From the IMG/VR virus record IMGVR_UViG_2700989487_000014, positions 1 through 4,408 of that record: a stretch of DNA of 4,408 bases. One strand, 5' to 3'. Source of the stretch: a virus. Its lineage: Duplodnaviria > Heunggongvirae > Uroviricota > Caudoviricetes. Positions within the stretch are counted from its first letter, which is position 1; each line of letters opens with the position of its first letter. Made by a program: the position numbers. Shown here piece after piece: positions 1-2,496 of this stretch.

Positions 1-2496
1 TCTGAGGCAGCACCTGGCACGGCTGGGACGGAAGTCGCTGTCGTTCTCAAAATCGGTGGAGCTGCATGACAAAGTCATCGGGCATTATCTGAACATAAAA
101 CACTATCAATAAGTTGGAGTCATTACCATGCATTTAAGTCGCTTGAAATTGCTATAAGCAGAGCATGTTGCGCCAGCATGATTAATACAGCATTTAATAC
201 AGAGCCGTGTTTATTGAGTCGGTATTCAGAGTCTGACCAGAAATTATTAATCTGGTGAAGTTTTTCCTCTGTCATTACGTCATGGTCGATTTCAATTTCT
301 ATTGATGCTTTCCAGTCGTAATCAATGATGTATTTTTTGATGTTTGACATCTGTTCATATCCTCACAGATAAAAAATCGCCCTCATCTTGGAGGGCAAAG
401 AAGATTTCCAATAATCAGAACAAGTCGGCTCCTGTTTAGTTACGAGCGACATTGCTCCGTGTATTCACTCGTTGGAATGAATACACAGCGCTGTGTTTAT
501 TCTGTTGTTTGCGTGAAAATGAAATCCGCCTGAGCGGGTTATGACCACTTTTTGTTTGGGTTTCGTTGGTGAGCGTGGTTTACAGGATTATTTGATATAC
601 CCCATAACTCTGACTCGCTTATCTCTACACGAGAGAAAGACCTGCTTTCTTTCAGTTCTTTTATAAACCTAGAACCTAAGATGACATCTATTGTACCAGA
701 AAGTTCTTGTAAAAGATCTTTGTTTTTTCTGAGGAAGAAAATATCTTCTTTATATTTAATTTTTACATAGAATTTATTCTGTATTTTTAATATATCAAAG
801 CATGGCAGATATCTATATCCCTCATATTTTCGCCACTGCTTAACAATTATAACATCTTTTTCATTTACTGCATTAATCAGCCCAAGACCAAGTACAGGTA
901 TGAATATTCTATTGTCTGCCGAAAGCGTACAATTATCACCACCAGGCAAATATGTATAAATCATGTCGGAATTTTTATACGCATCAACGAATGCACGTAA
1001 GAAGCGTACATATTTTTGCCATCCGTTTATACCGAATTTACCATATAAGTATTCTTTATTTGTTAGAAGAAAACTATTTGTATCAGGATCCTTATCTACA
1101 GACCTGTCGATAAGATCTCCAACTACGTTTACAAAGTCAAAGACAGAGTTTAATAAGAACAATTGTCTTTCAGTAGGGCGAATTTCAATTATGTAGCCAG
1201 GATGAAGACGATATTGCATCTGCTTACGAAGTATACCGAACGCTTGGGTCCGAGCATCTGAAAGCAACTTCTTGTCGCCATCGCCGTGAGCATTGTTTCT
1301 AATAAAACTGATATAATTTGCTAATTTTTCAGCCTCTTTTTTGTGTTTTTTTCGCTCTGATGCTGAGTCTATTGGTTTTGGTATGGACTTGTAATCAATC
1401 TTCTTCATTACGTACCTCATGCCAATGGAATGGATTCCCCTTTAACCTTTTGTCTTCCTTGACAAGTTATACCGAACTCACCTGGCTTGCTATACCAAAC
1501 TCGATGATTCTTGCGCTCAATACGTTGCAGGTTGCTTTCAATCTGTTCGTGGTATTCAGCCAGCACCGTAAGGTCTATCGGATTCAGTGCGCTTTCTACT
1601 CGTGATTTCGGTTTGCGATTCAGCGAGAGAATAGGGCGGTTAACTGGTTTAGCGCTTACCCCAACCAACAGGGGATTTGCTGCTTTCCATTGAGCCTGTT
1701 TCTCTGCGCGACGTTCGCGGCGGCGTGTTTGTGCATCCATCTGGATTCTCCTGTCAGTTAGCTTTGGTTGTGTGTGGGAGTCGTAGTCCTGAACGAAAAC
1801 ACCCCGCAATGGCACATTGGCAGCTAATCCGGATTCGCACTTCCGGCCAATGCTTCGTTTCGTATCACACACACCAAAGCCTTCTGCTTTGAATGCTGCC
1901 CTTCTTCAGGGCTTAATTTTTAAGAGCCTCACCTTCAATGGTGGTCAGTGCGTCCTGCTGATGGCTTAAAATTACAAGGAAGATTGTATGTTGTAAACAA
2001 GAAATATTGTAAAAAAGGGACGTGAAAAACAAACTCCATTGTTTTTAAACGGAAAATAGTTTGTTTTTTTGTTATCGAGATTGAGGTGGGGATTACTGAT
2101 TGCAGGTTCCGACTACATCACCAACAAAGGATTTGGTTGATGTAAGTTGTTGCATACCTGGGATGTTCATTACTTTGGAGTAAAGAGCTTTTTTGTCTGT
2201 AGTGATTGACCAAGTTTCAACGGTTATGCCTCCTCCAGACTGGTATTCTCCTACCATAGTGTTCGATGACAAAGCAGTGTATTTCATCTCTGGATAGACG
2301 CCAGAAACTGATTCATAAACTGATGATTTATCGCCATTTATTGTTACGTTGAAAACGGAATCTTCCGTGCTGTCTTTTGTAAACTCGTAACGATCGCCAT
2401 TCATTGCCCCGTACCCGTGCAGGTTTGTGACAATCCAGCATTCAGAATTGGCGCTGGTAGTTAAGAGTATTGAGAGTAGCGCCGCAATCCTGATCA

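Follow-up and report, generated by a model that had tools for sequence, protein, structure and literature searches.

The terminus of an IS1 element at a contig edge very probably marks an insertion into ea10 of a phage 434-like Escherichia coli prophage

IS1 is a 768-bp insertion sequence with imperfect terminal inverted repeats (IRs), which makes its transposase InsAB' by a -1 frameshift at an A6C motif and generates a direct target duplication of 8 or 9 bp (PMC12428005). One gene known to accommodate an insertion sequence is ea10 of the leftward pL operon: it is non-essential in lambda by CRISPRi (PMC10695390), and lambda derivatives with IS10 in this gene (lambda 366/1390, ea10::IS10) are viable (PMC2327257). 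Within the operon the gene heads the cIII-kil-gam-bet-exo-xis-int part, and it is represented in Escherichia phage 434 (OL657226.1) by CPT_434_47, a minus-strand gene for a 122-aa Ea10 protein with a DUF2528 domain. Here we analyze a stretch of 4,408 nucleotides (hereafter the window), the left edge of which had been taken in a preliminary description for higher-GC backbone resuming beside an AT-rich cassette. We find that, in all probability, an IS1 copy has instead transposed into ea10 of a phage-434-like prophage integrated in the E. coli chromosome. As in lambda 366/1390, an insertion sequence occupies the same non-essential pL-operon gene; in contrast to that case, which concerns IS10, lambda and a laboratory-made derivative, the element here is IS1, the prophage 434-like and the event natural.

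Positions 128-4117 of the window are collinear with positions 31362-35350 of phage 434 at 99.9% identity, the identity being 100% over 128-1420. Phage 434, along with more than 200 other phage records, runs on through base 128 into ea10. The window and phage 434 share ea10, a gene for a 289-aa protein, N, nutL/pL/oL, hex, the cI434 repressor, cro, cII and the start of O. They differ in that we are dealing here with a prophage at the lambda attachment site, with int beside a pectinesterase gene, and in that this prophage carries interrupting elements, IS1 within ea10 and an IS1203/IS629-like element within O. Base 128 maps into CPT_434_47, and the breakpoint between bases 127 and 128 falls after codon 74 of the phage 434 gene. 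It shows no microhomology: the shared sequence ATGCATTTAAG is preceded by ...CACCAT in phage 434 and by ...CATTACC in the window. The minus-strand ORF that spans the breakpoint is identical over residues 1-74 to the 122-aa Ea10 of phage 434. Pfam DUF2528 (PF10800) recognizes it with E=2.2e-23 over profile positions 1-57 of 104 only, which is short of a full-length match, and the ORF is a truncated Ea10 member, that is, a pseudogene fragment.

To the left of the breakpoint the window departs from phage 434 and follows IS1 (Table 1). For comparison we used two annotated IS1A copies in E. coli 2023CK-01509, one of which serves as a reference of 768 bp with the flanking 9-bp direct repeat TTTATCGAC. 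The window and both of these copies part from one another directly after ...GGAGTCATTACC (base 127), so that the junction in the window reads ...GTCATTACC / ATGCATTTA.... All of the sequence features from which a cassette had been proposed are borne out at this edge. The G+C fraction is indeed 0.60 at 1-70 versus 0.40 at 128-538 and 0.35 at 539-1420; a plus-strand frame is open from the window edge at base 2 to a TAA at 110-112, giving a 36-residue peptide; and a GGAG at 116-119 is followed, after an 8-nt spacer, by the ATG at 128-130, which opens an ORF of nine codons (MHLSRLKLL) ending at TAA 155-157. What changes is their interpretation. The GC-rich segment is not backbone, as had been supposed, but the terminal 127 bp of IS1, and the compositional step arises because IS1 is 53% GC. 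The TAA at 110-112 is the natural stop of insB/insAB', and the GGAG taken for a Shine-Dalgarno (SD) sequence sits within the right terminal inverted repeat (IRR, 105-127).

The source of the junction was sought with the chimeric 75-aa ORF as a probe, exact matches to which were found at two loci. One is the window itself, which is the complete contig JXVW01000216.1 (4,408 bp, reversed) of the draft assembly GCA_000948465.1; the other is UASG01000011.1 of GCA_900450275.1, a 1-Mb E. coli contig that is identical to the window at 4407 of 4408 positions. The chimeric protein is present in the database as SPX30444.1, an E. coli prophage protein. In UASG01000011.1 a complete IS1 of 768 bp lies at 10224-10991, aligns without gaps to the two annotated IS1A copies and is flanked on both sides by TAAATGCAT (10215-10223 and 10992-11000), a sequence that is present once in uninterrupted phage 434. 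On the far side of the element the remaining ea10 codons are followed by cIII-kil-gam-bet-exo-xis-int in the normal order. In-silico deletion of IS1 together with one repeat copy yields a 122-aa ea10 that differs by 1 nt from that of phage 434. A simple IS1 insertion with a 9-bp duplication is thus seen in GCA_900450275.1, and we infer the same structure for the window's own strain from the near-identity of the two (one mismatch in 4408 bp); nothing observed speaks against it. An assembly chimera at 127/128 was excluded, as the same junction and target duplication are found in the independent long contig.

The nearest isoform is IS1A of E. coli K-12, with which the element shares the terminal 127 bp, size, IRs, A6C motif, InsAB' and 9-bp duplication, but from the compared copy of which it differs by seven base substitutions (99.1% identity, 761/768). 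The A6C frameshift (slippery) motif TTAAAAAAC is kept, InsAB' is called as 232 aa over 698 nt with matches to PF03811, PF12759 and PF03400 (Zn-ribbon, HTH and DDE), and the terminal IRs, of the GGTRATG...CCAACTTAYTGAT type, are imperfect, with 18 of the first 23 positions matched. The element therefore displays the features that define IS1, namely a length of ~768 bp, imperfect IRs, insA and insB with a -1 frameshift and a 9-bp target duplication, although only its last 127 bp fall within the window. The reading frames of this copy are intact, as are its ends.

Table 1. Coordinates of the features of the window discussed in the text
Feature	Position	Strand	Basis and remarks
Right-hand terminal 127 bp of IS1	1..127	+	100% identical, ungapped, to the ends of two annotated IS1A copies and to the IS1 of UASG01000011.1; remainder beyond the contig edge
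Last 36 codons and TAA stop of insB / InsAB' transposase	2..112	+	Pfam PF03400 DDE_Tnp_IS1, E=2.5e-16, profile positions 96-131/131
IS1 right terminal inverted repeat (IRR), reverse complement GGTAATGACTCCAACTTATTGAT	105..127	+	18/23 match to the element's other end GGTGATGCTGCCAACTTACTGAT; same end base in independent copies
Truncated ea10 (DUF2528)	123..350	-	Codons 1-74 phage-derived (128-350), then Trp and stop supplied by the IS1 terminus (123-127 and beyond)
One copy of the 9-bp target-site duplication, ATGCATTTA (TAAATGCAT in ea10 sense)	128..136		Found on both sides of IS1 in UASG01000011.1
9-codon ORF MHLSRLKLL*	128..157	+	Antisense to ea10; junction by-product, not a gene
Intrinsic terminator-like hairpin, upstream of ea10 in the leftward pL operon	377..398	-	Terminator scan; annotated terminator in phage 434 (locus L001, 1742-1771)
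434-specific AT-rich module, 916 bp, single CDS 539-1408 (289 aa)	511..1426	-	Replaces lambda ral-orf28-sieB; 100% identical to phage 434
End of IS3-family (IS1203/IS629-like) element in replication gene O	4118..4408	-	Pfam rve_3 / rve_2; annotated IS3 / IS1203 family transposase in E. coli genomes

In the course of events that we favor, InsAB' would have recognized the terminal IRs of IS1 and the ends of the element would have been joined to a 9-bp staggered cut in the target, with repair of the stagger duplicating the 9 bp. The window holds the right-hand junction only, with the IS1 end at 1-127 followed by ea10 read backwards from 128, one copy of the duplication coming first, and Ea10 is cut to 74 of its 122 residues plus one IS-encoded Trp. 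The ATG at 128-130 is made up of the first three bases of the duplicated target, and the same ATG in phage 434 is preceded by ...CACAACACCAT, without an SD. The apparent SD-ATG is accordingly a chimera that combines a GGAG from the IS1 IRR with an ATG from the duplicated target, rather than the retained gene start for which it had been taken, and together with its 9-codon ORF it is a mechanical product of the placement of the IRR beside the target, without function. The preliminary description had also allowed for a recombination junction. This stands in the broad sense that a breakpoint at which DNA was joined lies exactly at 127/128, inside the flagged SD-ATG, while the rest of that interpretation falls: the gene struck is ea10, on the opposite strand, and its body was not displaced by a cassette, its 3' part surviving beyond IS1.

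The AT-rich module is real, but is found elsewhere. Homology to lambda imm434 covers window positions 128-510, is interrupted by a gap and begins again from 1427, and 510/511 is the module boundary in comparison both with lambda imm434 and with the Stx phages, there being no such mosaic boundary at 127/128. The order ea10, 289-aa gene and N is found without any IS in many complete E. coli genomes, such as 2015C-3163, where the DUF2528 gene is full (369 nt). Hence the module is native to phage 434, and its left boundary, which had been placed at 1-130, is a normal mosaic joint in its native position, 383 bp to the right of the flagged feature.

The reading in which an acquired AT-rich cassette ends on its left at 1-130 and phage or host backbone resumes, the SD-ATG being the start of a replaced gene, builds on a compositional step and a GGAG-N8-ATG that are both genuine; yet the GC-rich part is IS1, everything to the right of 127 is uninterrupted phage 434, the AT-rich module starts at 511 just as it does in phage 434 and many IS-free E. 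coli prophages, and the ATG is antisense inside ea10 and devoid of an SD in the uninterrupted phage. With collinearity to an intact phage 434 ea10 on the one hand and a 9-bp duplication around a complete IS1 on the other, we regard this reading as refuted and its probability as negligible. The preliminary description had itself named collinearity with an intact gene in relatives, with the cassette in a normal position, as incompatible with its view, and this is the arrangement observed. Hardly more can be said for the idea that IS1 has created a functional outward translation start, using its IRR as a ribosome-binding site for a micro-protein or for translational coupling into the prophage. 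The 8-nt spacing is good, and as the GGAG is part of the IRR, every IS1 copy that keeps this end has the same distance from SD to end. Against this, the ORF has nine codons, is antisense to ea10, closes at an in-frame TAA and is unique to this junction, so that there is no conservation to assess, and the promoter scan of 1-700 detected no sigma-70-like site able to drive it. Moreover, GGAG-N5-10-ATG is expected 2.6 times per window by chance and occurs six times (six or more in 13 of 200 shuffles), three of these instances being the real gene starts of N, cro and O; by itself the motif is within chance and statistically unremarkable. A functional start is therefore exceedingly improbable.

A slightly better, but still very small, probability attaches to an IS1-mediated rearrangement in the window's strain, be it adjacent deletion, inversion or cointegrate resolution, such that the rest of ea10 would not lie beyond IS1. 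IS1 does cause adjacent deletions, the E. coli locus L007 providing an example from the same region, and as the window ends inside IS1 the far side had to be read in the sister assembly GCA_900450275.1. However, the contig that differs at one of 4408 bases shows IS1 simply inserted, with a perfect duplication of 9 bp and the 3' part of ea10 intact, and several draft assemblies contain the same 4.4-kb contig, suggesting one clonal lineage. Beyond the simple insertion that we prefer, one may ask whether both IS insertions, IS1 in ea10 and IS1203/IS629 in O, represent a selected 'domestication' as opposed to random decay, which we consider highly unlikely. If it were true, the 434-type prophage would be locked in while expression of the immunity region, of hex and of the 289-aa Nun-tail gene continues, and the polarity of IS1 would damp the toxic kil and gam on accidental derepression.

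Returning to the simple insertion of IS1, the transposase frame is directed toward ea10 and thereby converges with transcription running leftward from pL. For the host the insertion is probably neutral, and cIII-int may be subject to polarity from IS1 unless this is relieved by N antitermination; N and nutL are intact in the window. The prophage is probably replication-defective, since an IS3-family element interrupts O, leaving both ea10 and O IS-disrupted. The feature is of an ordinary and already-known kind, an IS1 terminus at a contig edge that disrupts a dispensable prophage gene, and its significance lies mainly in annotation, in the form of corrected features and a precise breakpoint. 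A GC step, a frame open at the edge and a tidy SD-ATG can all stem from an IS terminus at an assembly break, and such patterns call for a comparison with IS1 and its like before they are taken for a new cassette boundary. The exact junction could also serve to mark the lineage of the few E. coli assemblies in which it occurs.

The junction was absent from all 5,426 complete E. coli genomes searched. Three of these records match at least 80% of window 1-600, but each in two separate pieces that stem from different IS1 events. An exact-match scan for the 35-bp junction in species-representative genomes returned none. Rfam gave nothing at gathering score on the window, and nothing was found in the literature under the assembly accession.

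Both ends of the contig fall inside repeats, IS1 on the left and the IS3-family element on the right. That the window extends 127 bp into IS1 and no further is probably due to the breaking of short-read assemblies at multi-copy repeats, and the exact overlap of 127 bp presumably reflects the assembler k-mer, for which this is a typical maximum value. Several other assemblies give the same contig (2-5 kb; ~4.4 kb), pointing to a clonal lineage in which both IS insertions are present. In UASG01000011.1 the IS3-family element is 1310 bp long (reverse-complement 13996-15305) with a 3-bp TAG duplication, O being broken at window 4117/4118. This O::IS junction recurs in E. coli O80:H26 EC-107 (100%) and in O157:H7 strains (~97.5%); either the site is a hot spot for insertion, or the element entered long ago and has been passed on with the prophage module. 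The end of this IS3-family element occurs a second time in the left arm (UASG01000011.1, 16028-16318), with a zf-dskA_traR-type gene on one side and xis/int on the other, which brings the IS insertions of the prophage to at least three.

IS1 copies were also seen in this region in other E. coli. In strain 2023CK-01509 two copies lie within ral fragments (locus L002, 1981-3592), and in locus L007 (~970-1740) an IS1 just to the right of ea10 is joined straight to a partial O, the N-cI-cro-cII region being deleted. These are independent events, and the accessory region of the pL operon seems to be a recurrent IS1 target.

The 289-aa protein of the AT-rich module (539-1408) belongs to phrog_12139, a function-unassigned family, and has no Pfam match. 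Similarity to the HK022 Nun-type transcription terminator (phrog_5632, E=7e-5) is confined to its last 20 residues, which resemble the C-terminus of that protein. As its gene occupies the slot of lambda ral-orf28-sieB, the protein may be an exclusion or termination factor; PADLOC gave no match for it or for Ea10. The hex gene of the 434 immunity region (window 2096-2500, minus strand) is annotated as 'repressor protection protein', overlaps the end of cI and belongs to phrog_2651, without a Pfam family. Its product is 158 aa in the mechanical ORF list versus 134 aa in the phage 434 annotation, which records a disputed start codon. In UASG01000011.1 (1-1300), a gene for LpxR (lipid A 3'-O-deacylase, PF09982) adjoins a NinI-like phosphatase gene at the normal place of Q and the late genes, which suggests either a right-arm truncation of the prophage or a moron.
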